The notes: a model not told the origin generated them from the letters alone. Counted from the stretch's first letter, positions 5,218 to 31,048 are shown. The stretch is 36,201 bases of DNA from an uncultured Planctomycetia bacterium (GCA_964529985.1 CAZGYL010000001.1:1-36201), one strand, 5' to 3'. Made by a program: numbers and translations.

Positions 5218-6252
5218 ATGGCCGAGGGGCCCCCGTTGCTTGAGGTACACGACCTGAAGGTATACTTCGACGTCGAAGGCCGCACCGCCAAGGCGGTCGA
5301 CGGCGTGGATTTTTCGATAATGCCCAATGAGGTCTTCGGTCTTGTGGGGGAATCGGGATGCGGCAAGTCGGTCAGCGCTCTTGCGATTCTCCGGCTGATA
5401 CCCGATCCTCCCGGAAGGATCGTGGGAGGGCGTATCCTCTTCAGAGGACGAGATATCCTGCAGCTGCCGCTCAACGAGGTAAGGGCTTTGCGCGGCAGAG
5501 ACATAAGCATGATTTTCCAGGAACCGATGACGGCTTTGAATCCCGTCTTCAGTGTCGGGTTTCAACTGCGGGAATCGGTGAAGCGGCAGCGCGGAGGGCT
5601 TTCAAGAAGACAGGCCGACAGGAAGGCTGTAGAGCTCTTGCGGTCGGTCGGGATTCCGGACCCCGAGCGGCATCTTAAGAGTTACCCGCACCAACTTTCA
5701 GGCGGCATGCGGCAGCGCGTCATGATTGCAATGGCGCTTGCCGGGGACCCGAAATTGCTGATAGCGGATGAACCTACAACTGCGTTGGATGTCACGATTC
5801 AGGCCCAGATCCTGGAGCTTATCCTTTCGGTACGCGAGCGTTCCGGCTCAATGGCCGTATTGCTTATAACGCATGACCTTGCGGTGGTTGCAGAAACATG
5901 CAGCCGCGTGGCGGTAATGTACGGCGGAAAGATCCAGGAGATATCGCCCGTTGAGAGCCTTTTTGCGGAACCTCTTCACCCGTATACCCGCGGCCTCCTG
6001 CGATCGCTCCCAAGAGCCGACCACGCGCCCGGGTGCCGGCTTGAGGCCATACCGGGAGTTGTGCCTGATGCGATGGACTTCCCCTCGGGTTGCACGTTCC
6101 GTACGCGATGCCCGCTTGCCGAAACCCTGTGTGCGGAAGAAGAACCCGAGCTTATTGAGGTCATGCCGGGAAGGTATTGCCGTTGCCACAAGGTGAGTGC
6201 GGCTCCGGCGCTTCGCAGGGAGCCGCAGGGAAAACAACAGGGAACACCGTGA
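5218..6252 (+). CDS. ABC transporter ATP-binding protein (DppD/OppD-like)
   Basis: Walker A GESGCGKS, signature LSGGMRQR, Walker [14 protein letters not shown]-loop ITHDL. C-terminal Opp-type Cys motif [15 protein letters not shown]...YCRCH. Confidence 0.93.
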
Positions 6253-7274
6253 AAGAAGTACTTTTGGAACTCCGGGATGTCAAAATATATTTTCCCGTTT
6301 ACAGCGGGGTTCTGCTGCGTAAGACAGGTGACATAAAAGCGGTGGACGGAGTTTCGCTCAAGATATACAAAGGGGAAACCTTAGGCCTTGTAGGGGAATC
6401 AGGTTGCGGAAAAACGACCCTCGGCAGGGGGATCATGGGGCTTGTGCCTGTAAGCGGCGGGTCGATCCTTTTCAAAACGACGCAAGGCAATGTCATAGAT
6501 CTTGCGCCGCTTTCGCGCAGGGCGTACCGCCCGCTCCGCGCCGAGATTCAAATGATTTACCAAGACCCTTATTCCTCTCTCAATCCCCGCTGGACCGTGG
6601 ACCAGATCGTGGCCGAGCCCCTTGCGGTGCACAGGCCGGATCTCTCAAAGCGCAAACGCACCGAGCAGGTGCGTTTGCTCCTGAGCAAAGTCGGGCTTAC
6701 CGAGGAGCAGGCACACCGGTATCCTCACGAATTTTCAGGTGGACAGCGGCAGAGGATCGGTATTGCAAGAGCCCTTGCCACCGATCCGCGTCTTATTATA
6801 GCCGACGAGCCGGTTTCAGCACTTGACGTGTCGATCCAGGCCCAAGTCCTGAATCTGCTTCAAGATTTGCAGGATGAGTTCGACTTGACCTACATGTTCA
6901 TCGCCCATGACATCTCGGTGGTTGTTTATATGGCGCACAGACTTGCGGTGATGTACCTGGGAACGCTGTGTGAGGTCGGACCGGCTCTCGAGGTCTACAA
7001 ACGCCCCTTGCACCCTTACACCAAGGCTCTTATTTCAGCGGTACCTCTACCCGATCCGAGGCTCAAGCGGGCGGATCGCGTGCGCTTGGGCGGCGAAGTC
7101 CCGAGCCCACTTGCCGCTCCGGAAGGCTGCCCCTTCAGCACACGCTGTTCGGAAGCCTGCGAAGAATGTGAAAGCATTCGGCCTGAGCTCAGCGAGGTCG
7201 AATCGGGACGATTCGTCGCCTGCCATAGGGTCTCTCGGCCGAAGGCGGAACGGGAAACGGAGGCGGCGCGCTGA
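6249..7274 (+). CDS. ABC transporter ATP-binding protein (DppF/OppF-like)
   Basis: ORF 6177..7274 trimmed to GTG 6249, which overlaps the upstream stop as GTGA. Walker A GESGCGKTT, signature FSGGQRQR, Walker B LIIADEPVSALD, H-loop IAHDI. C-terminal GCPFSTRCSEACEEC...VACH. Confidence 0.9.
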   Translation: MKEVLLELRDVKIYFPVYSGVLLRKTGDIKAVDGVSLKIYKGETLGLVGESGCGKTTLGRGIMGLVPVSGGSILFKTTQGNVIDLAPLSRRAYRPLRAEIQMIYQDPYSSLNPRWTVDQIVAEPLAVHRPDLSKRKRTEQVRLLLSKVGLTEEQAHRYPHEFSGGQRQRIGIARALATDPRLIIADEPVSALDVSIQAQVLNLLQDLQDEFDLTYMFIAHDISVVVYMAHRLAVMYLGTLCEVGPALEVYKRPLHPYTKALISAVPLPDPRLKRADRVRLGGEVPSPLAAPEGCPFSTRCSEACEECESIRPELSEVESGRFVACHRVSRPKAERETEAAR

Positions 7275-7282
7275 TTGCGCTC

Positions 7283-8548
7283 CTACGAGAGATTCTTCAC
7301 GCCGAGAAGCATTCTCCCCAGAAGCGTCCAATCGTCCAACTGTTTCTCGTCGATTCCGATTTCAGCCAGATACCCCCGGTCAAGCTCAAGCTCTCTTTCT
7401 TCCTTTGCCTTTGTTTCCTCCAGTTCGATTGCGTGGGCGAGCCAATCCGCGACATGAACCGCTGTGAGGGGCAGGAATCCCGCCGTTTTTCTTTCCGAAG
7501 GTTCATGATGGTAGAGTGCAGCCTCAACAAGTGCATGCGGTAACCCCCAAAGGCCCAGTAAGTAAGCGCCTACTTCGGAGTGGGTTGTGCCGCAAAGGGC
7601 TTTTTCAAGCTCAACGAGAGGTACTCCTTTGCGCCAGCCTTCAATGACATGGCGGTAGGTATCGGGAATCATGCAGGACAGAACGAGCTTTCCCACATCG
7701 TGAAGTAAGCCGGCGGCGAAAGATGTCTCGACGACTTCTTGTCCTGCTCCTGCAGCCCGTGCGAAAGCTTGAGAAAGTGAAGCCACTTGCAGGGAATGTT
7801 CCCTCAGCTTTTGCAATGAAACAGGCGGGTCGTGCGGAGCCCGGAAACTCTCAAAAATGGCGAATGAACAGACAAGCACCCTCGTGCGCACAAGTCCGAG
7901 CAGGGAGACCGCTCTGCCCGGATCGCTCACCTCCGACCTCAAACCGAAGAAAGCGGAGTTGACCAATTGGAGAAATTTTGCAGAAAGCGCCGGATCCTGC
8001 TTTACGCATTGAGCGATATGCGGAATTGAAGGCTCGGGCCGGTGAAGCAAGTCCAGAAGTCTCGAGTAGACTTCAGGAACGGGCGGCAGAGTTTGAAGTT
8101 CCGCTACAATATCAGCGAGCCCGGGATCGGAGATCCGCTCCCGCAGTGCCCAAAGTCCCGCCAGTGAGCTCCTCAGTTCCCGAGGAGCGGAGAACTTGGG
8201 TATGAACCTGTGGACGAGAGTGGATGACCGCAGGATATCTCCGATTCGACTGTACGATCCGTAAACCGCACGGATAGTTTCGGGCGAATGTATCAGAGCC
8301 TGTTCGAAAAGCCCAAGTCCGTTTTGGCCCGGAAGATCGAGCTCTGCAAGCAGGAGATCGTACCGCTCCGAGGAAAGTCGTTCGACGGCCTCACCCGGAT
8401 CACAAGAAACGTTGACATTCCACTGGGATTCTTCGCTTCCGCGTAACGCATCCTCGACAGCCTGAGCACATTTTTTATCGCCGCTCACAAAGAGAAGTTC
8501 CATACGCCGGGTTGGTCTTTCACTTTCCATTGGTATTTCCCCCATCAT
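7283..8548 (-). CDS. Response-regulator receiver (REC) + HDOD domain protein
   Basis: REC-like N-terminus MELLFVSGD...YDLLLAELDLPGQNG...FIPKF. HDOD region LPPVPEVYSRLLDLLHRPEPSIPHIAQCVKQDPALSAKFLQLVNSAFFGL and HD-like GLLHDVGKLVL. Start is uncertain: ATG 8548, ATG 8530 (GGGGGA 7 nt upstream) or ATG 8503. Confidence 0.85.
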   Translation of the reverse strand: MMGEIPMESERPTRRMELLFVSGDKKCAQAVEDALRGSEESQWNVNVSCDPGEAVERLSSERYDLLLAELDLPGQNGLGLFEQALIHSPETIRAVYGSYSRIGDILRSSTLVHRFIPKFSAPRELRSSLAGLWALRERISDPGLADIVAELQTLPPVPEVYSRLLDLLHRPEPSIPHIAQCVKQDPALSAKFLQLVNSAFFGLRSEVSDPGRAVSLLGLVRTRVLVCSFAIFESFRAPHDPPVSLQKLREHSLQVASLSQAFARAAGAGQEVVETSFAAGLLHDVGKLVLSCMIPDTYRHVIEGWRKGVPLVELEKALCGTTHSEVGAYLLGLWGLPHALVEAALYHHEPSERKTAGFLPLTAVHVADWLAHAIELEETKAKEERELELDRGYLAEIGIDEKQLDDWTLLGRMLLGVKNLS

Positions 8549-8556
8549 GCACAGGT

Positions 8557-8586
8557 AAAAAAAGGGGGGCCGGAATTTCCGGCCCC
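8557..8586 (-). terminator. Rho-independent terminator (minus strand only)
   Basis: Minus strand reads GGGGCCGG-AAAUU-CCGGCCCC, then CC and a run of seven U (8563-8557). The plus-strand reading has no U-tract. It ends 8 nt before the first possible start codon of the REC-HDOD ORF. Confidence 0.8.
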
Positions 8587-8750
8587 TTGCGTGGTCCGTG
8601 TGCCGGGTCGTTCACCGGCTGATTATTCTGTATGGGCCAGATGCCCATTGCTTGGCGGGGGCCGGGAAGGTGGTAGGTACGCCGGCACAGCGCCCAATCC
8701 ACCGAAATGGGCCGCGCGCGGCCCACCTTCCCGACTCCCGTCATGCCGGT
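8557..8750 (-). ncRNA. Candidate structured leader or small RNA (about 190 nt), bounded by an ECF-type promoter and the intrinsic terminator
   Basis: A 17-bp helix with one A.C mismatch pairs GGGAGUCGGGAAGGUGG (8739-8723) with CCACCUUCCCGGCCCCC (8673-8657). It encloses the GGGCCG-CGCG-CGGCCC and CCAU-UUCG-GUGG hairpins. Further hairpins (AUGGGC...GCCCAU, GCCGG...CCGGC) precede the terminator. No credible ORF is present. Confidence 0.4.
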
Positions 8751-8754
8751 CAGC

Positions 8755-8782
8755 ATTACGTGCGGCGCAGCAACACGTTTCA
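8755..8782 (-). promoter_or_regulatory. ECF-sigma-type promoter candidate, TGAAAC-N16-CGTAAT
   Basis: Minus strand has TGAAAC (8782-8777), an exact 16-nt spacer, then CGTAAT (8760-8755). This resembles the GAAC/CGT class of ECF promoters. It lies about 15 nt after the stop of the 737-aa gene and about 15 nt before the long helix. Confidence 0.35.
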
Positions 8783-8796
8783 GCGGCGCAACTCGG

Positions 8797-11010
8797 TCAG
8801 CCCTGCCGGCCGACTTTGGATCCCGAAGTGCGCCGCACGGACTCGTTCTTCTTTTTCTCATTCACCTCCACCAGTTGGATCTGTACGGGACCCGGCGGAG
8901 AAATCAGCACATCCCCGACTGAGACATGAGTCACCCGGCCATTGCGGGTGCCCACACAGCGGTAAACGCCTTTTACGATTCCAGGGATTATGATTCCTCC
9001 TTGCGGATCGACGATGCATTTATGAAGTTGTCTGCCTGCGGAATCCAAGATTTCCAAGAAACGCGGAGGCCGACCGGAACTCACGTTTATACGGCCTCTG
9101 ACAAAAGGAGCCGGTGTGAGTTGGATCGAAATGGGACCGGCCGCGGGGACCTTAATGGAATGAAGTTCAACAGGTGCGAAGCCGTAGGCCGCAACAAGTA
9201 CGTCGTAGGTTCCGGGAGGAATCCCCTGGGCCACTCCTACTCCACGTTCGACTCGAAGCGCAGCGGGTTGATAACGCGAGCTGCCCTCACGGGCATACCA
9301 GAAGTTGACCCAAGAAAACTCAGGTGCAGCGCCTTCGACCGTCAGATTGAAAACCAGGCGTGTACCTTGAGTATCGTTCTGCTCGGGAGCCGGTTTGAGA
9401 ATCAGCACAACCTCTTCACCGAAGGAGTCGACCTGAATCGCTTCGCTTCTCAGCCCGGCGGCCCTTGCCATGATCAGGTGTTTTGCCTTTTCCAGGCCGA
9501 AAGCCAGGAATCCTCCCTCACCGTCGTAGAGAATATGAGTGGGGGCAACCGGCCTCCAACCGTTTGCAATGCCGGGATCGGAAACGCGCAAAACCACGCG
9601 CCCTCCCGGGACCGGCTGGCCGTTCTCGGTTATCATGCGGCCGTGGAGCTCCTCTCCTTTAGTGGCCGTACCGACCCAGGGGGTAAGTCGGGGGAGGACG
9701 ACTTCGCGTTCGCCTTCGCGCGAAGCCGCCATGGTGCGGTGCAGCCACCTTACGGCATAGCGGCCTGCGGGTACTCCTTCGATTTGAAACGCGCCGTTCC
9801 TATCGGTTCGCGCAACGAAAAGCTTCGGTTCAACAAACCTGCCTATTAGGAACTCAACGTTGTTCCAGTAAGACGGGCGATCGACCGGAAATATCTTGAC
9901 ACTGACACCGGCTACCCCTTTCCCCTCTTCGTCTACGATCCGCCCGGCGAAAGTGCATAGTTCGTTGAGTTTAACCGCAAAAGGCTTTCCGCTTTCAATC
10001 TCGCCCGCGCGATAGAGCGTCCAGCCGGGAGCGAAACCATCCGCGCTCGCCACAAGAACCGTTTCCCAAAGCACGCACGGGGCGTGCCAGGTAAAGCGCC
10101 CGCTGGCATCCGCAACGGTTTCGCGCCAGTCTTTTGAAGCAAAAAGCCCTTTTCGTACCAGCCAACTCCAACAAACTCTCGCGAAAGGTACCGGCCTTCC
10201 TGTGGGATCCAAAACCACGCCTTCCCGAGTGAGTGCCGGTTCAAGAAGGAAAAGAACCGGACGCGATCCGGTGTCGTATGCCTGAAGCCCCACCCAGCGT
10301 GTCGCTGCGGTGAATCCAGGGCATCTGACGTCTATTCTGAAAGAAAGGAGCTCCAACGTGCGGCGGGGGGGAGCGTCCGCTCTCAAAGTAATTCGAAGCG
10401 GCGGAAGGGGCAAAACACCGCAACCGTCCGGACCTGTACGTGCGCCTTGAAGAGGGGGGCCTTCAGGTTCCGAAACCGTGATCGTTGCACCTGCAAGGCT
10501 TTCCCCGGTCTGGGCGTTCAGCACTTTAACGCCGTATGACAGGTGGTCGGGAAGCGGCAATTCGAGGGGATTCGGCAGTTCACCTTGCGAGAGAAAGGTA
10601 ACGGGCGTGTAGTCCAGGTGCTGGACGTACAGTGTGAAGGAGGGGCCCCGATACGGAAGCGAAAGGCGGAACCTGCCGTTCTCGTCGGTTTGGATCTTTC
10701 CGCTCGGTCCCTCCTCCCACCGCACGGAGGCGCCGGGAATCGCCTCGCCGTCGCTCAAGCGTACGACGCGGCCTTCGAGCGTGGCCTGTTCCCCCTTTTT
10801 CCCTTCGGGTTCCTCATGCTTTTCCCCAGAAAACGGTGTGGGGGCGGGCCAGCGGTTCGCAACGGCAGGGTCGAACCGCTCGGCCTGCGGACGAGTGGTA
10901 CGGCCGGCAGGGTGGGAACCCCACGAACCCGCCCACCACCAGGCGTTGAGGGCGATCACGATTACAAAGGCGCCGAGGACCAACCACTCTCGTCGCCGTG
11001 AACCCATCAC
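8797..11010 (-). CDS. Membrane-anchored (N-terminal TM) protein with tandem carboxypeptidase-regulatory-like beta-sandwich repeats; paralogue of the sigma-fusion ectodomain
   Basis: N-terminal anchor EWLVLGAFVIVIALNAWWWAGSW. Repeated G-R-(V/I)-x-D-x-x-G-x-P-(V/I)-x-G/A-x-V motifs: GRVVRLSDGEAIPGASV, GVVLDPTGRPVPFARV, GRIVDEEGKGVAGVSV, GRMITENGQPVPGGRV. The start is GTG 11010 or ATG 11007. Confidence 0.8.
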   Translation of the reverse strand: MMGSRRREWLVLGAFVIVIALNAWWWAGSWGSHPAGRTTRPQAERFDPAVANRWPAPTPFSGEKHEEPEGKKGEQATLEGRVVRLSDGEAIPGASVRWEEGPSGKIQTDENGRFRLSLPYRGPSFTLYVQHLDYTPVTFLSQGELPNPLELPLPDHLSYGVKVLNAQTGESLAGATITVSEPEGPPLQGARTGPDGCGVLPLPPLRITLRADAPPRRTLELLSFRIDVRCPGFTAATRWVGLQAYDTGSRPVLFLLEPALTREGVVLDPTGRPVPFARVCWSWLVRKGLFASKDWRETVADASGRFTWHAPCVLWETVLVASADGFAPGWTLYRAGEIESGKPFAVKLNELCTFAGRIVDEEGKGVAGVSVKIFPVDRPSYWNNVEFLIGRFVEPKLFVARTDRNGAFQIEGVPAGRYAVRWLHRTMAASREGEREVVLPRLTPWVGTATKGEELHGRMITENGQPVPGGRVVLRVSDPGIANGWRPVAPTHILYDGEGGFLAFGLEKAKHLIMARAAGLRSEAIQVDSFGEEVVLILKPAPEQNDTQGTRLVFNLTVEGAAPEFSWVNFWYAREGSSRYQPAALRVERGVGVAQGIPPGTYDVLVAAYGFAPVELHSIKVPAAGPISIQLTPAPFVRGRINVSSGRPPRFLEILDSAGRQLHKCIVDPQGGIIIPGIVKGVYRCVGTRNGRVTHVSVGDVLISPPGPVQIQLVEVNEKKKNESVRRTSGSKVGRQG

Positions 11011-11082
11011 TGCGTTCTCCGCACTACCGGGGTAACCAACCTCCGCTGCTGTACAAAGCCTCCGCAGATCTCCAGACTCCCT

Positions 11083-11106
11083 TTACGTCTTGCTTCGTTA
11101 CGTCTT
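11083..11106. repeat. Direct repeat TTACGTCTT x2 (15-bp period) upstream of the 737-aa gene
   Basis: ttacgtctt at 11083-11091 and at 11098-11106. On the coding (minus) strand this reads AAGACGTAA x2, about 75-95 nt upstream of the start. Confidence 0.6.
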
Positions 11107-11119
11107 AACGCTGTGCACA

Positions 11120-11566
11120 TTACTCAGTGCAGTCTTGACAGTAATCACAAGGATCCGACCAAACCGGCGTTACGTAGTGCGTCGAAGGCGAAAGGCACGG
11201 AAGATAAATGTACACTTTCGCCCACGAGCCTCTTGGATCGTCCCAGTCGAACCTTTCCGACTCCAGGCACCAGTTCACAAGCGATACGTCCGACTCAACG
11301 TCGAAACAGTACTCATTCCAATCCAGGCCGACCCACAGCGTGATCGTGTGATCGCAAACGTTGAACGTGTCCGGACTGTAGAGGTAGAGGCAGAGCCAAC
11401 CTGATTCCGACCCCTCCTTTGTGACCTCACCGTCGCACCACTGAAGGCAGCTCTGGCAGCTCTGGTCCACATCGGTCGAGTAAATCGAGAGGTTGTTGCA
11501 GGTAAGGTCGCCTCCGGCCGGAATACCTATCAAAAGAAGAACCGCTGCAAGTGACGCGCGAAGCAT
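11120..11566 (-). CDS. Small secreted Cys/Trp-rich acidic protein (148 aa precursor), unknown family
   Basis: ORF 11120..11596 trimmed to ATG 11566, which has AAGGAGG 6 nt upstream. Signal peptide MLRASLAAVLLLIGIPAGG. The mature part has 12 Cys and 8 Trp. GC is locally lower, about 50-55% over lines I hand-counted versus about 60% in a neighbouring gene. Confidence 0.7.
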   Translation of the reverse strand: MLRASLAAVLLLIGIPAGGDLTCNNLSIYSTDVDQSCQSCLQWCDGEVTKEGSESGWLCLYLYSPDTFNVCDHTITLWVGLDWNEYCFDVESDVSLVNWCLESERFDWDDPRGSWAKVYIYLPCLSPSTHYVTPVWSDPCDYCQDCTE

Positions 11567-11796
11567 AGCCTTTCCTCCTTGGTCTGCGCGGTGCAACCGA
11601 ATTGTGGCTGCATCGCATGCTTCCTCATTGACTTATGCCCCGCAGAGGCCGGCCTGAGTGCCAAAAAATTTCCGCGTTTCCGATTTCTTTTTTTTCACGG
11701 AGGCGATAAAAGAGGCTTAGGCGGCGCGGGCGAGTGCGGCGGGAGGACCTGTGGACGAAGAGGCAGGGGGGTGAAGCAGGAGAAAAGGACCCTCAG

Positions 11797-14298
11797 CTAC
11801 CTGGGCCGAGCACGCTCGCTTCGCAGGCGGATTTCAATCGGGGAGCTTCTGGGCAGCTGGATATCGGTAATTTCCACGGGCCGGTAGCCCGGCACGAAAA
11901 TACCGATACTGTAGGCGTCCCCCTCAAGCCCGGCGAGCTGAACGACACCGCTTCTTGCGAGCGTGTGGTACTTTAGGGTTTCGCCGCCTGCCGACCTGAG
12001 GGTCAGAGTCACCCGTTCGCTTTCCAGAAGGCCTTGTTCGGTTGTCAGCCGCAGCAGCAGGGAAGGCTGAAGAGGAGCGTACGGCCTGCGGCCCGACGAA
12101 AGGACGAGCGCCAGGTCGGCTGCAGGGTACTCCAGGGTGATCTCTTGAGGAAGCCCTTCAGGAGAGGTGATAAGCAGGCGGCAGGGAAAGCGCACGCGGG
12201 GGTCGAACCTGAAACTGCCGTCAGCAAGGCACTCGACGGCGCTTGAACGCTTTAGCCCCTCAGGAAGGCCGCTGGCCCACGTAAGAAGCACCCGGGCACG
12301 CGGTATCGGCTTCAGCCGCTCGTCAAGCACTCTTCCCCAAAGCTCTCTGACTTGCACCTTTCCCACCCACGGTACATGACGCGGAACCGTTAGGCAGGAA
12401 TCCGCTGCGGCTGCGAGGCCCGACAAGGTCACCCGGTAGCGTCCCGGCGGTACCTTTTCAAGGTGAAAGGCTCCTGTACCGTCGGTTACCCCTTCAAGAC
12501 CGCGCCCTCCGGGAAACCGTTTCAGGAGGCTTGCCACCAGAGGCTCAACACCGGCCGGCACAAGTTTGAAAACCATGTGGGCAAGAGATGACCCGTCGGC
12601 CGCAAGCAGTTTGCCTTCAACCGAAAACGCTTGACCCAAGTGAATCGAAAGCGGTTGGTCCGGTTCTTTGACTTCGGTTTGAAGGACAGCAGGAGCAAAA
12701 GGCTCCCGCCATACTGCGATGGTGCAGGCTCTGAATCTGCGCGGAAGCGTCAGGGCAAACCGGCCGGATTCATCCGCAACTGCTGCCAGTGGGCCGGGGT
12801 TCGGCAGGATCGGACCTTCGTCCGAAATTGAGCTTACCCTTGCAAGTACCCGCGCACTTGCAACGGGTCGTCCCTCAGGGTCGAACACAATGCCTGTGAT
12901 AGTAATCCCTCTTGCCAGGCGGATGATTCGTTCGCCCGGGCGGGCGCTCAAGGTAATAGGAATCCTACGTGGGACGTAACCGGGAGCTGAGATTTCAACC
13001 GAGGCGCTTGGAGGCCAACTGCATATTCTTCCTGCTGCAACGTCGGCTTGCATCTCGCCCGGGCGCAGCGCGACTTCGCCCGTCTCACCGGTTGGACCCT
13101 GCGTGAGCTCGGGGCAGCAGGATATGCGAAGTCGCAACAAAGCGCCTTCAAGCGGCGAGGCGCTTTGTGCGTCGAGCACTTTGAAGCGGAAAGGCTTGTC
13201 CGGAAGCAGGTACAGAAGAAGCCTGGTTTCAAATGGATCAACCACAGTGAAGCGTGCAGGTAGAAAGCCTTCCCTCTGGACCGTAAGTTTGAGAAGATTT
13301 TCGTGCGAGCAACTCAAAATCGCGGTTCCGTCGCTCTGCGAGAGAGTAAATGACCGAGGATCAGAGGCGTCGGAAATTCCAAGGACCGCCCCTTCGATCG
13401 GTTTCTCTTCAGGCCACGAAACAACAACCGCTGATACGCGTCTCATATCGGGCCTGAGCGCGCTTCTTCGTCCCGCCTCCAAGCGCTCTCCGAAATGCCC
13501 GATCGTAGGGCCGATCAGAGCCACCTTCGGGACCCTATCCCTAGGAGTCTCGGGCTGCGTGTTTCGGCCTCCCAGCAAAATGATTCCAACGAGGCAGACA
13601 GACGGAATTGAAAGCAAGGCCGCAAGCTTCGCTGCAGCCGAGGCCGGCTGCAGCCCTCCGCCCGCCGGTGAAGCGGGAAGACTCTGAGCCGCTTTTAAAA
13701 CTGTTTTATCCAATTGCCCGGCCGGAAGTTCTGCAGCAGAGACTCGGTCGGGCCACCCTGCCAGAGCTGCAAGCACCCCTGCGCCGAAGGTTTTTTTCAG
13801 AAGCTCCCTGCCTCTGACAAGTCGGCGCTGAACCGTGCGGACGCTGCACGCCATAAGGTCCGCAACTTCCTCCCGCGTAAGCTGGGCGCAGTGAAAATAG
13901 TAAAGCGTAAGAGCAAGTTCTTTATCCAAGGAGTTCAGCATGTCCCAGATTTCGCTGAGCAGAGGATCGGGGGGCCGCTGCTCGTGATCTCTGTTCCGGG
14001 CGGCCCGCATTTCCCTCAGCCGCCTGCGCTCTTCGGTGCGTATCCAGCGGCTGGCAAGCTGGTGCGCAAGAACGACCAGGTAGATTCTGGGGCTGGCGGG
14101 AAGCGGAAGCGCCGGGCGGCTGAGAAGCAGCCCCAGAAACACGTCCTGCGCCACATCTTCAGCTGCAGCCCAATCGCCTGTCACGCGGTAGGCCGTCGTT
14201 AGGACCAGATTGCGGTATTCGGCGTATAGGGCAAGAAAATTCTCTCGCGTAGGGCAACGGAGATATCGCTCCAGGGTATCGCCTCGCATCTTCCCCAT
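11797..14298 (-). CDS. ECF sigma-70 family factor fused through one TM helix to a roughly 590-aa extracytoplasmic carboxypeptidase-regulatory-like repeat domain
   Basis: Region 2: AAEDVAQDVFLGLL...YLVVLAHQLASRWIR. Region 4 HTH: LTLYYFHCAQLTREEVADLMACSVRTVQRRLVRGRELLKK (aa 1-170, nt about 14298-13789). TM helix AAKLAALLSIPSVCLVGIILLGG (nt about 13632-13567). Repeats follow: ITGIVFDPEGRPVASARV, VEGKLLAADGSSLAHMVF, LWGRVLDERLKPIPRARV. GGAGG lies 8 nt upstream of the ATG. Confidence 0.85.
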   Translation of the reverse strand: MGKMRGDTLERYLRCPTRENFLALYAEYRNLVLTTAYRVTGDWAAAEDVAQDVFLGLLLSRPALPLPASPRIYLVVLAHQLASRWIRTEERRRLREMRAARNRDHEQRPPDPLLSEIWDMLNSLDKELALTLYYFHCAQLTREEVADLMACSVRTVQRRLVRGRELLKKTFGAGVLAALAGWPDRVSAAELPAGQLDKTVLKAAQSLPASPAGGGLQPASAAAKLAALLSIPSVCLVGIILLGGRNTQPETPRDRVPKVALIGPTIGHFGERLEAGRRSALRPDMRRVSAVVVSWPEEKPIEGAVLGISDASDPRSFTLSQSDGTAILSCSHENLLKLTVQREGFLPARFTVVDPFETRLLLYLLPDKPFRFKVLDAQSASPLEGALLRLRISCCPELTQGPTGETGEVALRPGEMQADVAAGRICSWPPSASVEISAPGYVPRRIPITLSARPGERIIRLARGITITGIVFDPEGRPVASARVLARVSSISDEGPILPNPGPLAAVADESGRFALTLPRRFRACTIAVWREPFAPAVLQTEVKEPDQPLSIHLGQAFSVEGKLLAADGSSLAHMVFKLVPAGVEPLVASLLKRFPGGRGLEGVTDGTGAFHLEKVPPGRYRVTLSGLAAAADSCLTVPRHVPWVGKVQVRELWGRVLDERLKPIPRARVLLTWASGLPEGLKRSSAVECLADGSFRFDPRVRFPCRLLITSPEGLPQEITLEYPAADLALVLSSGRRPYAPLQPSLLLRLTTEQGLLESERVTLTLRSAGGETLKYHTLARSGVVQLAGLEGDAYSIGIFVPGYRPVEITDIQLPRSSPIEIRLRSERARPR

Positions 14299-14328
14299 CG
14301 AGAAGACCTCCTGAAAGTCACTAAGAGC

Positions 14329-14357
14329 ATTATGAGGGGTTCTCGGGCGCTGATCAA
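14329..14357 (-). promoter_or_regulatory. Sigma-70-type promoter candidate TTGATC-N17-CATAAT for the sigma-fusion gene
   Basis: Minus strand has TTGATC (14357-14352), a 17-nt spacer, then CATAAT (14334-14329). The site is about 30 nt upstream of the ATG at 14298, with the SD sequence in between. Confidence 0.45.
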
Positions 14358-14394: not shown

Positions 14395-15141
14395 TCAGGT
14401 ACCCACACCAAGCCATTTCTGAAGTAGAAAGGTGATTCGGCCGATCAGTAAGGACACCCTCGCCATGACCGTGTAACCGAAGGACGCACCAAAAGAGACC
14501 ATAAGGAAAAGCACGCCCACCCGACTTGCGATCCCCCAGGCGCCCTTGTGCTCCACAGAGAAAAAGAAGTAGAACAAAACCGTCATGACACCCGTAAAGA
14601 CCACCAGGGCGTTGACATCGAAGGCGCCGTGTGCCCAAAGGGGCTGCATGGTACCTGCGATTTGCTGGAAGATGTAGTTGGTCACATACCTGGGGATTGC
14701 GAATCCCGCAGTGAAGCCCACGATGAACGCGAAAGATATGCGGCTCAGGTACGCGAGGGGCCGGGAGAAACGCAGGAAGAGAAAGAGACCGAGCGAGGCG
14801 GGAACGGCGACCTTCAGAAAGTACCATGCTCCGGCCTGGCGGGGCGGGTTGCGGAGGGGCTCGATTACCTCTATTACTATAACCGGATACCAAACCTGGA
14901 GGAATGTGTACGCAGCGGCGACACCTACGTACAAGTGCTCGGCGAAGGTGAAAAGGGGATTATCCCGGTACAGGAAGCTGTAAAGACTCAAAGTCAGCCC
15001 TGCGGCGGCAATGATTCCGAAACCCGACCAATCGGCTTTCAGCCGACCTGCGAAAAACAAAAGCGCATTGATTCCGGCGAAAAGCACCATGAACGTCAAC
15101 ACCAGCGGAACGTTTCTTTGCTGAGATCGTTCATTTTCCAT
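14395..15141 (-). CDS. Polytopic integral membrane protein, unknown family (module gene D)
   Basis: ORF 14395..15195 trimmed to ATG 15141 (MENERSQQRNVPLVL...), which overlaps the stop of the upstream gene by 11 nt. It is hydrophobic throughout, with about 7 predicted helices. I recognise no catalytic or transporter motif. Confidence 0.7.
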   Translation of the reverse strand: MENERSQQRNVPLVLTFMVLFAGINALLFFAGRLKADWSGFGIIAAAGLTLSLYSFLYRDNPLFTFAEHLYVGVAAAYTFLQVWYPVIVIEVIEPLRNPPRQAGAWYFLKVAVPASLGLFLFLRFSRPLAYLSRISFAFIVGFTAGFAIPRYVTNYIFQQIAGTMQPLWAHGAFDVNALVVFTGVMTVLFYFFFSVEHKGAWGIASRVGVLFLMVSFGASFGYTVMARVSLLIGRITFLLQKWLGVGT

Positions 15142-15964
15142 AGCTCGGGATCCTCTTGCGTTGCAGCAGGAAGAGCGCGTTTCCGGTGAAAACAAGCAAC
15201 ACGATCAAAAGATGGGCCGCACACTGCGCGCGCATTCCCGCCATAGCGGGCCCGCTCCGCCCGGTGAGGTACTCGTACTCCGCGGCTCCGGCCAGCCCTC
15301 CAAGCAGCCCCTCCAACTGGCCTGTCTGGATCCACGGGTAAAGATCCGGCGCAACGACCGCCGTGCAGCCTCCTCCGACCGGTATATGGGCTTTGTCCTG
15401 CCCGTATACGATCCACCACTCAAGCGTTTCCCCGTGGGTTATAACCATAAGGTAGTTGAAGTCACCCAGATTCCGGATGTCAGAAGCAACCGGAAGCTTT
15501 GAGATCGGAGTTCCCCGCCAATCGCGATCAAACGCTGCTGAGAAGCGCTCCGTCATGGCGATGATGAGAGCACGCTCGCCGGAACGGTATCCCAGATAAA
15601 CGTAATCCTTGCCGTACTGTCTGCCGTATCGCTTCGCCTCTTCTTCGAGCACGGATCCCACGAGGCCTACTCCTGCAGGCTGGTGGGTCATCGCAACTAT
15701 GCGGATTCCCAAACGAAAGCAGTGCCCCAGGAGCGTATGTGCCATGGGGTTGAGCTCTTCTTTGGAGGAAGGATCATAGTCCATGGAAACCAAGATACGC
15801 GCGCCGGGCTTTCGTCCCAGTGATTCGATGCGCTCGAAAACACGCCTTGTCAGAGGAGAGGGCCTTATGGGAAGGCGGAACGGCACCAGTATCGCAGCGA
15901 CAACCGAAGAGAAGAGCAGGACGAAGATAATCCGCCGGTCGAGATCGGCAAGTCTGCTGAGCAC
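15131..15964 (-). CDS. Bitopic membrane protein (TM, about 200-aa domain, TM), unknown family (module gene C; paralogue of gene A)
   Basis: GTG start with AAGGAGG 5 nt upstream. N-terminal TM IIFVLLFSSVVAAILV and C-terminal TM AAHLLIVLLVFTGNALFLL. Topology and co-linear motifs are shared with the 326-aa protein. Confidence 0.7.
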   Translation of the reverse strand: MLSRLADLDRRIIFVLLFSSVVAAILVPFRLPIRPSPLTRRVFERIESLGRKPGARILVSMDYDPSSKEELNPMAHTLLGHCFRLGIRIVAMTHQPAGVGLVGSVLEEEAKRYGRQYGKDYVYLGYRSGERALIIAMTERFSAAFDRDWRGTPISKLPVASDIRNLGDFNYLMVITHGETLEWWIVYGQDKAHIPVGGGCTAVVAPDLYPWIQTGQLEGLLGGLAGAAEYEYLTGRSGPAMAGMRAQCAAHLLIVLLVFTGNALFLLQRKRIPSYGK

Positions 15965-16001
15965 TATCGCCTCCTTCCAAAGGGAGTCATTTCAGGAGAC
16001 A

Positions 16002-16652
16002 CTATTCGCCTCCGAGGTACGTGCGCTCGACGCCGAGGATGATCCGAAGCGAGGTCGCTACGATTCCCAGTCCCATGCCGATCAGAATCGCCCGCTTCAC
16101 CGCCATGTTGGGGTAATCAAGAAGCCAATCTGCAAGCTGTGGGATTCGGATGCCGAGCAGGTTGCCGATGGGGATCCGGCCGATCATAACCACAAGCGCA
16201 GCAAGAAGAAGCACGGTCGCCTCAAAAGTTTTTGCTCTAAAAGCACGGTAAGCGGCCGAAGCTATGAAAAACGCCAAAAGAGAAAACATGGTGGCGCTGC
16301 ACGGCACCTGTATGTAGTTGTAAAGCCAATCGACCCGGCGGTCCGCCAGCTCCGTCACGAAAGGCCCCTTGCCCCCGTTGTAGAGCCCGAAAAAAAGGGT
16401 GAGCGCGAATCCGACGAATACAACGAAACTGTAGGCGGATCCCGGACTCCGACTTCGAATTTTCGCCCAATGTACGCTCAGCAGGTTTACAAGTCCCAGA
16501 ATCAAGGCGAAGCCGAGTACGATACTTCCCCATTTTGAAAGCGTCTCGCTTACGGCATTTGCCGTCGGGTGGGAGCTCCAATAGACTGCTATGCACACAA
16601 CGCCGGTTATGGAAGCCACGGCTGTGGGAAGCACCCTGTGAAGGAACCTCAC
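16002..16652 (-). CDS. Polytopic integral membrane protein, unknown family (module gene B)
   Basis: GTG start with GGAGG 6 nt upstream. About 6 hydrophobic helices, for example IVLGFALILGLVNLL, SFVVFVGFALTLFFGLY, MFSLLAFFIASAAY, ATVLLLAALVVMIG, AILIGMGLGIVATSL. Confidence 0.7.
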   Translation of the reverse strand: MRFLHRVLPTAVASITGVVCIAVYWSSHPTANAVSETLSKWGSIVLGFALILGLVNLLSVHWAKIRSRSPGSAYSFVVFVGFALTLFFGLYNGGKGPFVTELADRRVDWLYNYIQVPCSATMFSLLAFFIASAAYRAFRAKTFEATVLLLAALVVMIGRIPIGNLLGIRIPQLADWLLDYPNMAVKRAILIGMGLGIVATSLRIILGVERTYLGGE

Positions 16653-16695
16653 GCCAACCTCCGGTTTTCTCTCTGCACAACAGCGCCCGCTGCGG

Positions 16696-17676
16696 CTATT
16701 TCAAGAGAAAGAAGTCCTTCAAGACATGGCAGCCGAGTGACTCAAGCAGGAAGCCGGCGGCCAGAGCGGCCATAAGCGCCGCCTTCGCGCAATCCTGAGC
16801 TTTCAGGCTTCCAAGAAGTACGGGCTGTCTAGAGAGGTACGCGCTCGCTGCGTAGAACTCATCGCCCATGATCACATAGTCGCAGGTTGTAACAAAAAAC
16901 GGCAACTGCGTGTACTTATCGGTTCCTGCGATCTGGAGAGTGCCGCAACTGAGCCCGGTCTCAGTGAGAATAAGTGATTCAGCGTAAAAAGGACCGAAAT
17001 ACAAGACCGAGGCCGGCCTCGCGCGCACGATAAGGCCGCTCAATGCTGCGGCGTAACTGAATTGCTCAGCTGCAAGAAAGACAACCGACCGGCGCTTGAA
17101 AGCGCTCCCCTTCGCCTCTTCTGTATACGCTTCCTTGACTGTTTCTTCGGTTACGGCATGTACTCCGGGATAAATGTTATACACTCTGAGCTCGGCTCCG
17201 TAACGAGCACAAAGTCGAGCCACATGTTTCAAGACATTTACAGCCGCTACGGTCGGGATCTCCGTAAGAGGGAGGAGCCCGGGTGAGAAGAAAAGCGGAC
17301 GGCCCATTTCAACGGCCCTGCCCACCGCCTGTTCGAGGGCATCCAGGCCGGGAATCCGACGCACGAAGATCTCAGGCCGCCTGCGGGCGTATATCGTCCA
17401 GCCCACAACGAGAATCGACATCAGAATGGTTACAACGGCATGGCCCGAGTACTTGGTGTTGAACCAACCGGGCTGCACGGAGGCTTTGCTGAGCACAAGC
17501 CTTCCCTGAGCGGGTCGCCCTTGGGAATGCGCGGGTTTCTCCCAATCGGCTCCGGCGGAAAAACACCTCAGGCACAGCAAGAGAACAAGAGCCGAAAAAA
17601 GCGTTCTAAAGTGCCTGATCCAGAAACCACTTTCCGGTTCACACAATTCGCTGCGACGAGGCATAAAGCTTTCCAC
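16696..17676 (-). CDS. Membrane protein (signal/TM, TM, about 200-aa domain, TM), unknown family (module gene A)
   Basis: ORF 16696..17676 starts at GTG; ATG 17664 is an alternative. Hydrophobic segments: FRTLFSALVLLLCLRCFSAGA, AVVTILMSILVVGWTIYA and C-terminal AKAALMAALAAGFLLESLG. The central region begins IPGLDALEQAVGRAVEMGRPLFFSPG. Confidence 0.65.
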   Translation of the reverse strand: MESFMPRRSELCEPESGFWIRHFRTLFSALVLLLCLRCFSAGADWEKPAHSQGRPAQGRLVLSKASVQPGWFNTKYSGHAVVTILMSILVVGWTIYARRRPEIFVRRIPGLDALEQAVGRAVEMGRPLFFSPGLLPLTEIPTVAAVNVLKHVARLCARYGAELRVYNIYPGVHAVTEETVKEAYTEEAKGSAFKRRSVVFLAAEQFSYAAALSGLIVRARPASVLYFGPFYAESLILTETGLSCGTLQIAGTDKYTQLPFFVTTCDYVIMGDEFYAASAYLSRQPVLLGSLKAQDCAKAALMAALAAGFLLESLGCHVLKDFFLLK

Positions 17677-25682: not shown

Positions 25683-26807
25683 ATGAGGGTCGCTCTTGTC
25701 CATGACTGGCTTGTTGCGTTGCGGGGCGGCGAAAAAGTGCTCAAGCTGCTTTGCGAGCTGTTCCCTCAGGCACCGGTCTACACCCTGCTATACGTTCCGG
25801 GCAGCGTCGGGCCGCCTGTTGAAAACCGGCCGATCGTTACGACCGCTCTAAGCCGTTTTCCGGGTGTCCGCTGGTATTACAGGAGCCTGCTGCCGCTTTT
25901 CCCTGCACTGGCTCGAAGCATTAAATTGCGGGGATTCGATCTTGTAATCGCTGTGAGTCATTGCGTTGCGCATGGTTTCGCACGCGGGAACTGCAAGCGT
26001 TTTGTTGCATACTATCTGACTCCGATGCGCTATGCATGGATGCCAGAATTGTATCTCAGCGCGCGAAGCGGCTCTTGGGGCAGGTTTGCTCTGCGGTGGG
26101 GAGCGTTTGTATTCCGCGGGTGGGATCGGCGTGCTGCGCGGCGGATCGATCAGGCGCTCTGTGTGTCCGAATCCGTAAGGCGGAGGATCAAGCTTTGGTA
26201 CGGAAGAGATGCACTTGTAGTTTATCCGCCCGTAGATACGGACTTCTACCGCCCGCTGGGGTTGAAACGACAGGATTATTACTTGTGGGTCGGCGCTTTG
26301 GCCCCTTATAAGAGAATCGATTTGACGCTTGAGGCTTTCGCGCGCCTGGGTAAACCTCTGGTGGTTATCGGTGAGGGGCAGGGAATCAGAAGTGCGCAGC
26401 GGTTCGCCCCTCCTAACGTGCGCTTTTTGGGCCGCCTTACGGATCGGGAAGTACTTCAACATTACAATACGTGCAAGGCACTCGTATTCCCGGGAGAGGA
26501 GGATTTCGGTTTGGTCCCTGTTGAGGCGCAAGCCTGCGGCTGCCCGGTGATCGCCTACGGTAGAGGAGGTGCCGCCGAAACCGTGATCGACTTGAAGGAA
26601 GCATCAGAGCCCACCGGAGTTCTTTTCGGAGAGCCGAACGTGGAAGCGCTTTGTGCTGCGGTTCTTCGTTTTGAGCGGGCACGGAAGAGGTTCGATACGG
26701 AAGTCCTAAGGAGAAACGCTTTGCGTTTCAGCACTGAAAACTGCCGTAACGCATTCAAGAGTGCGCTCGGCCTGAGGGACGGCTTCGCTGCTTATAGAAG
26801 CGCTTGA
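25683..26807 (+). CDS. Glycosyltransferase family 4 (GT-B, retaining)
   Basis: [21 protein letters not shown]-terminus. C-terminal E-x7-E region [33 protein letters not shown]. Confidence 0.88.
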
Positions 26808-27900
26808 TGGCCGCTACGACCTCGACCTGCTCCGCTTCTGTAAGCTCGGGGAAAACAGGAAGCGCAAGCGTTTGGCGGGAGGCTTCGAAAGCGTTGGGGA
26901 AATCCTCGATTCTGTAGCCGTACTTCGCGAAGCAGGGCTGCTCGGGCAGGATAAAGGGGTAATAGATTTCAGAGCCGATTCCGTTTCGGCTGAGGAAAAG
27001 CCGCAGCTCATCGCGGTTCGTACAGCGGACGACGAATTGATTATAAGTATGGCGTTCGAAACGCTCTTCGGGAAGGCGTATTTGCTCAGGTACAAGCCCG
27101 GCCTCTTCAAAGAGCGCGCGGTACCTTGCGGCATTGCGCCTGCGGGCTTTTATCCACTCCTCAAGGTGCGGCAGTTTTACCAAGAGCACGGCCGCTTGAA
27201 TAGCATCCAGCCTGAAGTTTCCGCCCACGGTTTCGTACCGGTACTTGGGCCATGCACCGTGATCGCGGAGGATTCGAATCCTTTGCGCAAAGTCGGCGTC
27301 ATCGGTAAGTACCATGCCTCCGTCGCCTATACAGCCGAGGTTTTTCGAAGGGAAGAAGGACAAACAGCCCGCCTTGCCGAATGCACAGGCCTGCTTGCCG
27401 TCGTAGCGTGCTCCAAGTGCTTGCGCCGCATCTTCCACAACCGGTATTCCTCTTGCGCCTGCGACCTGGAGAATCGGCGTCATGTCGGCGCATTGTCCAT
27501 AGAGGTGAACCGGGATAATCGCTTTTGTCTTCTCTGTGAGAGCCGCTTCAAGGCGCGCCGGATCCAACGTGTAGGTTCCGGGGTCTATATCGACGAAGCG
27601 TACCTCAGCGCCAAGGCGCACAATACTGCCTGCCGTGGCAAAGAACGTATACGGTGTTGTAACCACCTCATCCCCCGGTCCGACCCCCAGAGCCATAAGT
27701 GCTGCAAGAAGGGCATCGGTACCTGAAGAAACGCCTACAGCATGCTGTACGCCCACATAGGCGGCAAGCGCTCCCTCAATCGCTTCGACCTTAGGCCCTC
27801 CGACGTAGCGGCCGCTTCGCGCGACTTCCAGGAGAGCCTGTTCTATTTCATAGCCCAACTGCTGGTACTGTCGGGTCAGATCCAAAAGCGGTACTGGCAT
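26755..27900 (-). CDS. DegT/DnrJ/EryC1/StrS-family PLP-dependent sugar aminotransferase
   Basis: ORF 26755..28116 trimmed to ATG 27900, which has AAGGAGG upstream. [41 protein letters not shown]-lysine region [19 protein letters not shown]. Confidence 0.9.
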
Positions 27901-28078
27901 GGAGATCAGCCTCCTTAGAGGGGCCAAGGACACGGCCGGATTGTATGCGCCGGGCGCGGGACGGTCAACCGCAGCGCGTAAGAGCATCTTTCGTCGGCGG
28001 CCTCTTGTAGGTATAGTCAACCCGGTCGTACCGGGACGGAAATGGTGAGGTCCTTTTCCCCTTGCAAGGAGGAGGGAA

Positions 28079-29488
28079 GTGCTTCGGCGTCCAAGCACGC
28101 TCTTTTTTGCGGTCACCGCTCTTTTGGATACCGCCGGGGCGGCCGGAGCATGGCTTGCGGCCAGCTGGCTTGCCGGCGGGCCTTTTGCAGGTTGGTTCGG
28201 CCCTGTTTCAAAGTCGGATATGATCCTTATGCTTCCGGTTGCGGTCGCCTGCGGCCTGATCGCGCTGAGTGCGGTAGGGCTCTACAGGCCGGCGCGCACC
28301 CGCTACCTCATGCGTGAGTGCATGCGGGCTACGAAAGCGGCGTTGCTTTCGTGGATTGCACTTCTTGCCGTGCTTCTTCTTTCGGGCAAGACGGCATACC
28401 GCCGGGAGTTTCTGCTACTTTATTGGGTTTGCGGTACTTTGTTTTTGGTTGGGGATCGTTTCCTGTTGCACAGGATTCTGCGTGCGTTTGCAAGGCGCGG
28501 AATCGGTCTGCGGCGCGCTGCGATCGTAGGTGTGGGAGAGCTGGGGCATCAGACTCTGGCGCGGCTTCGCTCAAACCCGTGGGTGGGTCTCAAGGTGGAG
28601 TACTTCATTGACGCGGATCCTGCCCAGGCGGAGTGGAACGAAGGTGAAACTTTCCACGGAGTCCCCGTTGCGTATCGGGGGGAGGACTTCCTGCCGGTAT
28701 TGGAACGCAACCCTGTTGATGCCGTGCTTGTTGCGGTACCGGCTCACCGTTCCGAAAGGTTGAACGCCGTTCTGCGCTCCCTTTCACGGCTGCCTGTTTC
28801 GGTTGCGGTCATGCCTGATTTCACGGGAGCTTTGCGCATAAGCGCAAGTGTGGGCGAATTCGAAGGTCTTCCGATCGTCGAGCTATGGGATACCCCTATT
28901 TACGGGTGGTATGCCGTTGCAAAACGCGTGATAGATATAGCGGTGTCGGCGGCCTGTTTGATTCTTTTCGGCTGGCTCATGCTGCTGCTCGCCATTCTGG
29001 TAAAACTCACAAGCCCCGGGCCCGTCCTTTTCAAGCAGGAGCGCATGGGGCTCGGGGGCAAGCCCTTCACCATACTTAAGTTCAGGACTATGCGGGTTGC
29101 AAGCGACGAAGAGAGTGATACGCGCTGGACGACTCCACAGGACGAGAGGATAACACCTGTAGGCCGGTTCATGCGCAGATTCAGCCTGGATGAGCTTCCC
29201 CAGTTTTTCAACGTACTCAAAGGCGATATGAGTCTGGTCGGGCCTCGTCCCGAGCGGCCGTACTTCGTGAAGCGATTCACCGAAGAGCTCCCGGCGTACA
29301 TGCTCCGCCACAGCGTGAAAGCGGGTATGACGGGTTGGGCCCAGATCAACGGCCTGCGGGGCGATACCTCCATTGAGGAAAGGCTCCAGTATGACCTGTA
29401 CTACATAAACAACTGGTCTCTGCAGTTCGATCTCTTCATTCTCTTGGTGACTCCTTTCGCCGGACTACTCGCCCGTAATGCGTACTGA
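28079..29488 (+). CDS. Polyprenyl-phosphate sugar phosphotransferase (WbaP/WcaJ-type initiating enzyme)
   Basis: N-terminal TM bundle. Rossmann-like [32 protein letters not shown]. Bacterial sugar-transferase domain [58 protein letters not shown]...[35 protein letters not shown] lies upstream of GTG 28079. Confidence 0.92.
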
Positions 29489-30959: not shown

Positions 30960-30978
30960 AGAATCCGATTTCTTCTTT

Positions 30979-31007
30979 TTGAAATTCTCCCCCCCGTGGC
31001 TTACTAT
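30979..31007 (+). promoter_or_regulatory. Sigma-70-type promoter candidate TTGAAA-N17-TACTAT
   Basis: ttgaaa (30979-30984), a 17-nt spacer, then tactat (31002-31007). The site is about 40 nt upstream of GTG 31049. Confidence 0.4.
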
Positions 31008-31048
31008 ACCGGCGGTGCAAGGGACGGCTTGCCGGGAGTTGAAGAGAC

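Follow-up and report, generated by a model that had tools for sequence, protein, structure and literature searches.

The locus described here lies in a stretch of DNA of 36,201 nucleotides (nt) from an uncultured Planctomycetia bacterium (GCA_964529985.1, CAZGYL010000001.1:1-36201), which was analysed at its full length and is referred to below as the window. Three open reading frames (ORFs) are arranged head to tail on the minus strand and encode an extracytoplasmic function (ECF) sigma factor joined to a transmembrane (TM) helix and a large ectodomain (hereafter, the fusion), a small Cys-rich secreted protein, and a sigma-less paralogue of the same ectodomain; a gene for a REC-like/HDOD/HD protein comes next (Table 1). 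An earlier note on this DNA had interpreted the first three genes as a one-component transmembrane sigma signalling module, in which the sigma might be released by proteolysis and the paralogue and/or the small protein might modulate it.

Table 1. Features of the locus; positions are counted from the first nucleotide of the window.
Feature	Position	Strand	Basis or comment
Sigma-fusion gene, 833 aa (ECF sigma, linker, one TM helix, tandem β-sandwich ectodomain)	11797..14298	-	
Sigma region 2 (aa 24-91)	14026..14229	-	Pfam Sigma70_r2
Sigma region 4 (aa 116-167), helix-turn-helix	13798..13953	-	Pfam Sigma70_r4_2
Cytoplasmic linker (aa 173-220, ~50 aa)	13639..13782	-	AlphaFold 2 pLDDT <50
Single TM helix (about aa 221-244)	13567..13638	-	Hydropathy and AlphaFold 2
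Extracytoplasmic domain of the fusion, 'type A' (aa 245-833, 589 aa), about six prealbumin/CarboxypepD_reg-like β-sandwiches	11800..13566	-	
Small secreted Cys-rich protein, 148 aa, 12 Cys, signal peptide	11120..11566	-	Founder of an unannotated family
Sigma-less paralogue, 736/737 aa: N-in signal anchor, 'type B' ectodomain, extra ~100-aa C-terminal domain	8797..11010	-	
N-terminal membrane anchor of the paralogue (aa 10-28, RRRE before it)	10927..10983	-	Hydropathy peak
REC-like/HDOD/HD protein, fourth gene of the block	7283..8548	-	Pfam HDOD E 5.5e-54, HD E 3e-11
Sigma-70-like promoter candidate 5' of the sigma-fusion gene, TTGATC-17-CATAAT, T run before	14329..14357	-	Consensus match only
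Bipartite promoter-like motif (T run, TTGGCA, 21 nt, CATAAG) 5' of the small-protein gene	11632..11666	-	
Terminator-like hairpin 3' of the paralogue: 9-bp stem, 8 GC pairs, then T run	8566..8586	-	

The N-terminal part of the fusion is an ECF (group 4) sigma-70 factor, containing regions 2 and 4 and no region 3. The Pfam model Sigma70_r2 matched it with 46.1 bits (cutoff 24, E 4e-12) and Sigma70_r4_2 with 26.6 bits (cutoff 25.7), the NCBIfam model TIGR02937 (sigma70-ECF) covered residues 23–169 with 59.5 bits (cutoff 42.9), and the scan of family models found no match to sigma region 3. None of the named ECF subgroups fits the protein, every NCBIfam subfamily or equivalog model scoring far under its cutoff; examples are SigE-fam_strep (50.2 against 141.6) and TIGR02989, a Rhodopirellula/Verrucomicrobium family (25.6 against 124.6). 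AlphaFold 2 modelling of the fusion, using 12 family members, resulted in a mean predicted local distance difference test (pLDDT) score of 70.9 and indicated a confident helical sigma core (residues 10–180, with a pLDDT of about 80–90 in region 2), a low-confidence stretch (residues 184–283) containing one helix (221–241), and an all-β part (residues 286–830) with a pLDDT of mostly 70–90. The Kyte–Doolittle profile has a single peak (2.46 at residues 225–243), which coincides with this helix.

In the C-terminal part of the fusion, CarboxypepD_reg (PF13620) matched five stretches (90.5 bits, cutoff 32.3). A Foldseek search against the PDB indicated a resemblance of the predicted ectodomain to the beads-on-a-string β-sandwich stalks of Gram-positive pilins and adhesins (TIE, SdrD B domains, BcpA), with E-values of about 1e-9 to 1e-11 and low global TM-scores, as expected with flexible multidomain chains; the PDB sequence search with the fusion returned designed repeat proteins only. 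This part is placed outside the cell because its sigma-less homologues carry classical N-in signal anchors. Neither Pfam nor NCBIfam models of anti-sigma domains (zf-HC2, RskA, FecR) matched the fusion at E up to 1, and no recognisable anti-sigma domain was found with these databases in either of the genes adjoining it. The linker contains no Cys or His, and hence no Cys/His zinc motif, and is only weakly conserved across 133 cassette homologues. A 266-aa membrane protein encoded upstream was considered as a separate anti-sigma factor and ruled out, having no family match and not being kept beside the sigma gene of a related locus, L007, described below. An origin of the fusion through a frameshift or misassembly was likewise ruled out, the fused ORF being kept in many independent assemblies. 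It is close to certain that a single polypeptide contains the sigma core, the TM helix and the extracytoplasmic C-terminal part. The anatomy set out in the earlier note, with complete ECF sigma regions 2 and 4 in the 833-aa ORF, one TM helix, about 590 aa of extracytoplasmic β-sandwich repeats and no separate anti-sigma gene next to it, is borne out in each of these parts.

The protein encoded two genes 3' of the sigma gene has the N-terminal anchor that had been described for the 737-aa ORF, with RRRE preceding the hydrophobic segment; in public gene calls the protein begins with the next codon, the ATG at 11007, and has 736 aa. An LN[AG]WWW motif at this anchor is common to P0035, a sigma-less homologue from L007. 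Five stretches of the paralogue were matched by CarboxypepD_reg (136.5 bits, cutoff 32.3). A BLASTP comparison revealed one colinear high-scoring segment pair between residues 297–825 of the fusion and residues 74–631 of the paralogue (565 columns, 25% identity, E 2e-26), and every segment pair that the earlier note had matched by eye lies on its diagonal. The local alignment score of the two proteins is 305, against 124.6±30.3 after permutation of the order of 85-aa blocks of the paralogue (none of the 200 permutations reached 305) and 43.9±5.8 after shuffling of its residues; a windowed score matrix of the two ectodomains contains the main diagonal together with a weaker off-diagonal repeat signal. 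When 1.84 billion representatives were searched exhaustively, the paralogue matched the fusion as one long stretch (query residues 365–826), and generic multi-CarboxypepD_reg proteins matched it in several short, lower-scoring stretches. The similarity of the two ectodomains exceeds repeat-level similarity.

Two proteins found in the same exhaustive search are orthologous to the fusion over its full length, namely P0022 (832 aa, 33% identity, 359 bits) and P0023 (835 aa, 30%, 276 bits). The search also returned the sigma-less proteins of the paralogue type P0035, P0053 and P0113, and the further sigma fusions P0025, P0026 and P0029. In a neighbour-joining tree based on 544 ectodomain columns, these proteins form two clades, of which clade A, comprising the window fusion, P0022, P0023 and P0026, is separated in 200 of 200 bootstrap replicates from clade B, comprising the window paralogue, P0035, P0053, P0113, P0025 and P0029. 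Both proteins of the window score higher with their counterparts in L007 than with each other (214 versus 100 bits for the fusion, 437 versus 93 bits for the paralogue). Given the two clades, the duplication of the ectodomain is older than the split of the window and L007 genomes, each of which has retained both copies; on this tree the stalk of the fusion is an old duplicate of the paralogue ectodomain.

The locus L007 (GCA_975963735.1), which carries P0022, contains the fusion, the small protein, the sigma-less P0035 and a REC-like/HDOD/HD gene in the same order as in the window. Their identities to the window proteins are 33%, 51%, about 36% and 34% (the last over 410 aa, for the gene in the equivalent slot at 5729-6970), and the genes flanking the block differ between the two genomes. 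The third locus with a full-length orthologue, L008, which carries P0023, ends 300 nt past the sigma gene; this short remainder still includes the promoter-like motif and the beginning of an ORF whose N-terminus resembles a signal peptide. Of the three-gene sigma module proposed in the earlier note, the gene order stands, being held in L007 though the sigma fusion there is just 33% identical; the extent of the module has to be revised, since the REC-like/HDOD/HD gene, judged by its equivalent slot, is a fourth member of the conserved block, and a pair of small protein and sigma-less protein occurs also without the sigma. None of the outcomes that the earlier note had named as fatal to its idea was observed, whether for the sigma models, the TM helix and topology, the ectodomain similarity or the gene adjacency. 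Neighbours of the distant fusion P0003 (L001) were considered as possible partners and rejected, the small proteins there being unrelated. Two genomes each contain two fusions of the ectodomain family in different neighbourhoods, GCA_041308185.1 (L013 and L015) and GCA_975963735.1 (L007 and L017), so the family is expanded within genomes. Relatives bearing a name include 'Planctomycetes bacterium ADurb.Bin069' (L009/L019) and a Verrucomicrobiae metagenome-assembled genome.

The likely start of the small-protein gene is the ATG at 11566, with AGGAGG 7 nt before it, which results in a protein of 148 rather than 158 aa; the public gene calls are likewise of 148 aa. The protein is acidic (24 Asp and Glu against 7 Lys and Arg) and begins with a signal peptide. 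Searches in Pfam and NCBIfam revealed no match, a profile search against the PDB gave none at E up to 10, a word-indexed homologue search returned only the protein itself, and single-sequence AlphaFold 2 modelling yielded no usable model (pLDDT 37.8). Relatives were recovered solely via the gene neighbourhoods of ectodomain homologues, in L007 (148 aa with 13 Cys, the most conserved of the block members), L018 and L009. A profile of four homologues placed members of the family directly 5' of sigma-less type-B proteins in L009/L019 and in L018, with no sigma fusion adjacent at either, and a scan of metagenome contigs with the small protein gave no further match. A 150-aa secreted protein 3' of the sigma fusion in L015 has no detectable kinship to this family and was not counted as completing a trio. 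Its distribution among these loci marks the small protein as a conserved partner of the ectodomain family, not of the sigma, and, as the pair occurs without an adjacent sigma fusion in L009/L019 and L018, the small protein and the sigma-less anchored protein together look like the basic unit and not like an add-on to the sigma.

Between the sigma gene and the small-protein gene, at an equivalent position in the window, L007 and L008, there is a bipartite promoter-like motif with the general form of a T run, TTG[GA]CA, a spacer of 20–21 nt and CAT[AC][AT][AG]. It is present once in the window, where 0.01 copies are expected, and once each in L007 (2918-2952) and L008 (3746-3779), and a second shared block, (A/G)GAAGC(A/C)T.GC, is located about 37 nt 3' of it. 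Because the pattern was derived from these same loci, the motif is a lead and not a test. A bipartite k-mer search revealed no shared promoter of the ECF type (-35 GGAAC / -10 CGTC). The TGGCAC within the intergenic motif was considered as a sigma-54 site and ruled out by inspection, the spacing of GG and GC being wrong. The sigma-fusion gene has a good ribosome-binding site.

Taken as a whole, the locus is read here, with about even confidence, as encoding a one-component membrane-tethered ECF sigma factor in a four-gene block, which is released by proteolysis and provides feedback on surface assembly. In the tethered state, the sigma would be kept from RNA polymerase and promoters, and, with a linker that contains no recognisable or folded anti-sigma domain, tethering itself is perhaps the inhibitory principle. 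A change in the ectodomain would then permit its site-1 cleavage. Most plausibly, the stimulus is that the type-A stalk loses or gains contact with the small protein, makes an altered homotypic contact with the type-B paralogue, or both. Intramembrane (site-2) cleavage would follow and free a sigma fragment of about 220 residues, as in the hybrid protein IutY and as proposed for ECF52 SCO4117 (see below). The freed sigma would most likely drive the unit of small protein and paralogue from the bipartite element, and the outcome would be a feedback control of cell-surface assembly, where the sensor is a copy of what it monitors. In favour of this reading are the architecture and topology of the fusion, the old paralogy of the ectodomains, the gene order kept in L007 and in part in L008, the motif common to three loci and the return of the same design on another fold in L022 (see below). 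Proteolytic release is probable by analogy with these systems. Helix-destabilising Pro, Ser and Gly are typical of the TM helices of site-2 protease substrates, and the TM helix of the fusion includes all three, a feature that is no more than suggestive of proteolytic activation.

Several observations weigh against the tethered-sigma feedback reading. The complete block was found in two genomes only, with the partial L008 in addition; scans of genomes and metagenome contigs added one further organism only, ADurb.Bin069, where no sigma fusion is adjacent; and the sigma-fused type-B relatives in L013 and L017 have neither an adjacent small protein nor an adjacent sigma-less paralogue. The AlphaFold 2 model contains no folded anti-sigma domain in the linker, and consequently there is no sign of an active inhibition of the sigma beyond tethering. 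The charges flanking the TM helix of the fusion do not clearly follow the positive-inside rule. The spacing of 20–21 nt in the bipartite motif is unusual for sigma-70 and unlike that of typical ECF promoters. No protease gene was found among the window ORFs scanned, and all the steps past the anatomy, namely the release, the fragment and the target promoter, are argued by analogy.

A further question is how the sigma part came to be attached to this ectodomain. Among the best 150 clusters at 50% identity, 130 include the sigma cassette, 122 have a TM peak no more than 150 residues past region 4, and 111 exceed 600 aa; among the linked ectodomains are some with up to nine CarboxypepD_reg repeats and some with FG-GAP repeats. 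The sigma-linker-TM cassette is common and promiscuous, and the architecture itself is not new; the remark in the earlier note that ECF sigmas with TM-containing C-terminal extensions are a known class agrees with this frequency and with the discussion of such proteins for Planctomycetes by Pinto and da Fonseca (PMC7671368). Clade B interleaves sigma-fused and sigma-less members (P0113 and P0025 are 38% identical), so the presence of the cassette is evolutionarily labile. The window cassette is as near to those of the sigma-TM-FG-GAP fusions P0027, P0028 and P0030 (104–105 bits; 105 bits for P0027), the nearest outside its orthologues, as to those of P0023 and P0025.

These data could also be explained by the locus being a by-product, in which a mobile cassette was inserted before one copy of a tandemly duplicated surface-protein gene, the neighbours being there by descent, the ectodomain being structural or adhesive and the regulation of the sigma being generic (turnover, basal intramembrane proteolysis). 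This alternative is rather unlikely. Besides the kinship of the cassettes, their presence on diverse large ectodomains and the interleaving within clade B, it is favoured by the resemblance of the ectodomain to a generic adhesin or pilin stalk and by the 2020 study of Pinto and da Fonseca, which describes for planctomycetal ECF sigmas a conserved sigma2-sigma4 core with swapped large extensions and the insertion of duplicated sigma genes before existing genes (PMC7671368). However, the four-gene order has outlived a divergence to about 33% identity with both flanks changed, and both duplicates have been kept in both genomes. Moreover, the arrangement of a fusion beside its sigma-less paralogue has arisen again on another fold, which would be unlikely without selection. 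In L022 (1-10174), the one locus looked at among those of the nearest FG-GAP-fused cassettes, P0027 lies between FG-GAP/dockerin proteins, and the gene 3' of it encodes a sigma-less paralogue of its ectodomain, scoring 567 bits against at most 116 for the other FG-GAP proteins; the pairing of a tethered sigma with an adjacent sigma-less copy of its sensor domain is therefore found again with an unrelated fold.

The occurrence of this arrangement with the β-sandwich stalk in the window and L007 and, independently, with the FG-GAP propeller in L022 permits a wider and rather doubtful proposal. The arrangement may be a recurrent design of Planctomycetes–Verrucomicrobia–Chlamydiae (PVC)-type lineages, where a mobile cassette is grafted onto one copy of a duplicated surface protein. 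The tethered sigma would join the sigma-less original and its Cys-rich partner in a homotypic assembly and would be released only if that assembly is absent or damaged, which would constitute a surface feedback free of anti-sigma factors.

The idea of a decoy, put forward in the earlier note, assigns other roles to the same proteins: the small protein would be a ligand or co-sensor, and the paralogue would compete for it and set the threshold of activation, both acting as modulators and not as targets. RseB binds the periplasmic domain of RseA and gates site-1 cleavage, and the analogy with this pair of the rpoE operon speaks for the decoy, as do the homology of the ectodomains along their whole length, the conserved association of the small protein with the ectodomain family and the position of its gene between the two ectodomain genes. 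On the other hand, the ectodomains are only about 24–25% identical and long diverged, so they need not bind the same ligand; the paralogue ends in an additional domain that the fusion lacks; and the pair of small protein and sigma-less protein, which occurs also with no sigma fusion beside it, must serve some purpose independent of the sigma. The interaction of the small protein with the ectodomains is likewise hypothetical, and we regard the decoy as quite improbable. Least credible is a sigma active while tethered, in the manner of ToxR or CadC, with the flexible linker allowing the recruitment of RNA polymerase and the ectodomain controlling clustering, since no sigma factor is known to work while membrane-anchored and the Pro, Ser and Gly of the TM helix speak against it. 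The unstructured linker without an anti-sigma fold, the lack of a protease or anti-sigma gene in the block and the recovery of planctomycete ECF sigmas in detergent-soluble fractions (PMC8567305) would suit such a mechanism, but IutY, the sole experimentally dissected hybrid, requires proteolytic release (PMC8999054).

A comparison with known systems places the tethered-sigma feedback reading more precisely. IutY of Pseudomonas putida, a sigma/anti-sigma hybrid of group ECF243 whose sigma is released through processing by Prc and RseP (PMC8999054), is likewise a single polypeptide in which an ECF sigma at the N-terminus is followed by one TM helix and an extracytoplasmic C-terminus, with no separate anti-sigma gene, and it serves as the mechanistic template for the release proposed here. 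It differs in having a FecR-type anti-sigma/sensor part, a TonB-dependent receptor and a role in iron signalling, whereas the window protein has a tandem CarboxypepD_reg stalk instead of a FecR domain, and its partners are a paralogue and a small Cys-rich protein and not a receptor; no gene for a TonB-dependent receptor was found among the window ORFs scanned. In Actinobacteria, the ECF52 (SCO4117), ECF48 and ECF53 sigmas possess C-terminal extensions with TM helices and an extracytoplasmic domain, and a proteolytic activation was proposed for them (PMC8999054, PMC5826349). They share with the window protein the combination of an ECF sigma with a long TM-containing C-terminal extension, but their extensions include a zinc-finger element like that of zinc-binding anti-sigma (ZAS) factors, a Pro-rich region and a carbohydrate-binding domain, while the linker of the window protein has no Cys/His motif or folded domain and its relatives belong to PVC-type lineages. 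In the RpoE-RseA-RseB-(RseC) operon, the sigma gene precedes those for an inhibitor/sensor that spans the membrane and, after it, for a small secreted protein, and in E. coli the release from RseA proceeds via RseP and ClpXP (PMC8103513). In the window, the sigma and the sensor are fused, the small protein, which has no family match, is not a relative of RseB, and there is an extra sigma-less paralogue.

The likeness to other extended ECF sigmas of Planctomycetes is apparent in the occurrence of the window ectodomain family with and without the cassette and in the presence of related cassettes on FG-GAP proteins. Jogler et al. reportedly listed in 2012 a WD40-type 'ECF01-Gob' among such extended sigmas. 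According to the accessible text of Pinto and da Fonseca, genomic context is not conserved within recently duplicated clusters (PMC7671368), in contrast with the four-gene block, which has been kept across deep divergence. The literature searched, which did not cover the supplementary group descriptions of the ECF re-classification, contained no account of a CarboxypepD_reg-type fusion, of the small Cys-rich family or of a paralogue-adjacent arrangement. What is new is the conserved four-gene block, the unannotated family of small proteins, and the recurrence of fusions beside sigma-less paralogues of their own sensor domains.

The REC-like/HDOD/HD protein of the block may be a pseudo-receiver. 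Its match to the Pfam receiver model is under the cutoff (25.2 against 30.2), and Glu apparently occupies the site of the receiver phospho-acceptor Asp ('LLLAELDLPG', 'VLVAELRTPP'). Between its gene and that of the paralogue, public JGI and ENA annotations contain a 78-aa ORF (8520-8756, minus strand), which is probably no gene, because it has no family match and the terminator-like hairpin lies within it; the corresponding gap in L007 is only 20 nt long. Directly 5' of the sigma gene (14395-17676, minus strand) there are four genes for predicted membrane proteins, one with DUF6754 (E 7e-92) and three with no significant family, then an FGGY sugar kinase gene; the run of membrane proteins is not kept beside the sigma gene of L007. 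A cluster for polysaccharide/glycoconjugate biosynthesis at 25683-32674 includes genes for a GT4 glycosyltransferase, a DegT aminotransferase, a Bac_transf priming transferase, a PMT_2 glycosyltransferase and a cytidylyltransferase/PfkB fusion, and a 912-aa ORF at 33401-36139 (minus strand) had no Pfam match at E up to 0.001. No Rfam families or tRNAs were found in the window. A gene for an FG-GAP protein of about 1190 aa is located in the loci L009/L019 and L018 and also beside the sigma-fused relatives in L013, L015 and L017; none was found among the window ORFs scanned. Dockerin-like C-termini are present in FG-GAP proteins of L009/L019 and L022 and in a 233-aa protein of L017.

ECF sigmas with TM-containing extensions are numerous in Planctomycetes and Verrucomicrobia, and almost none of them has been studied. 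The locus offers a compact and conserved test case for sigma control without an anti-sigma factor: the tethered sigma is encoded close to the small protein, its candidate ligand, and to a copy of the sensor that lacks the sigma, and a candidate target promoter lies between these genes. Should the sensor not read its own paralogue, the locus would still be a clear case of sigma cassettes grafted onto existing membrane proteins. If it does, this would account for the frequent occurrence of seemingly 'structural' ectodomains on such fusions, and would offer a general rule by which the inputs and the regulons of these sigma factors may be predicted from their gene neighbourhoods.

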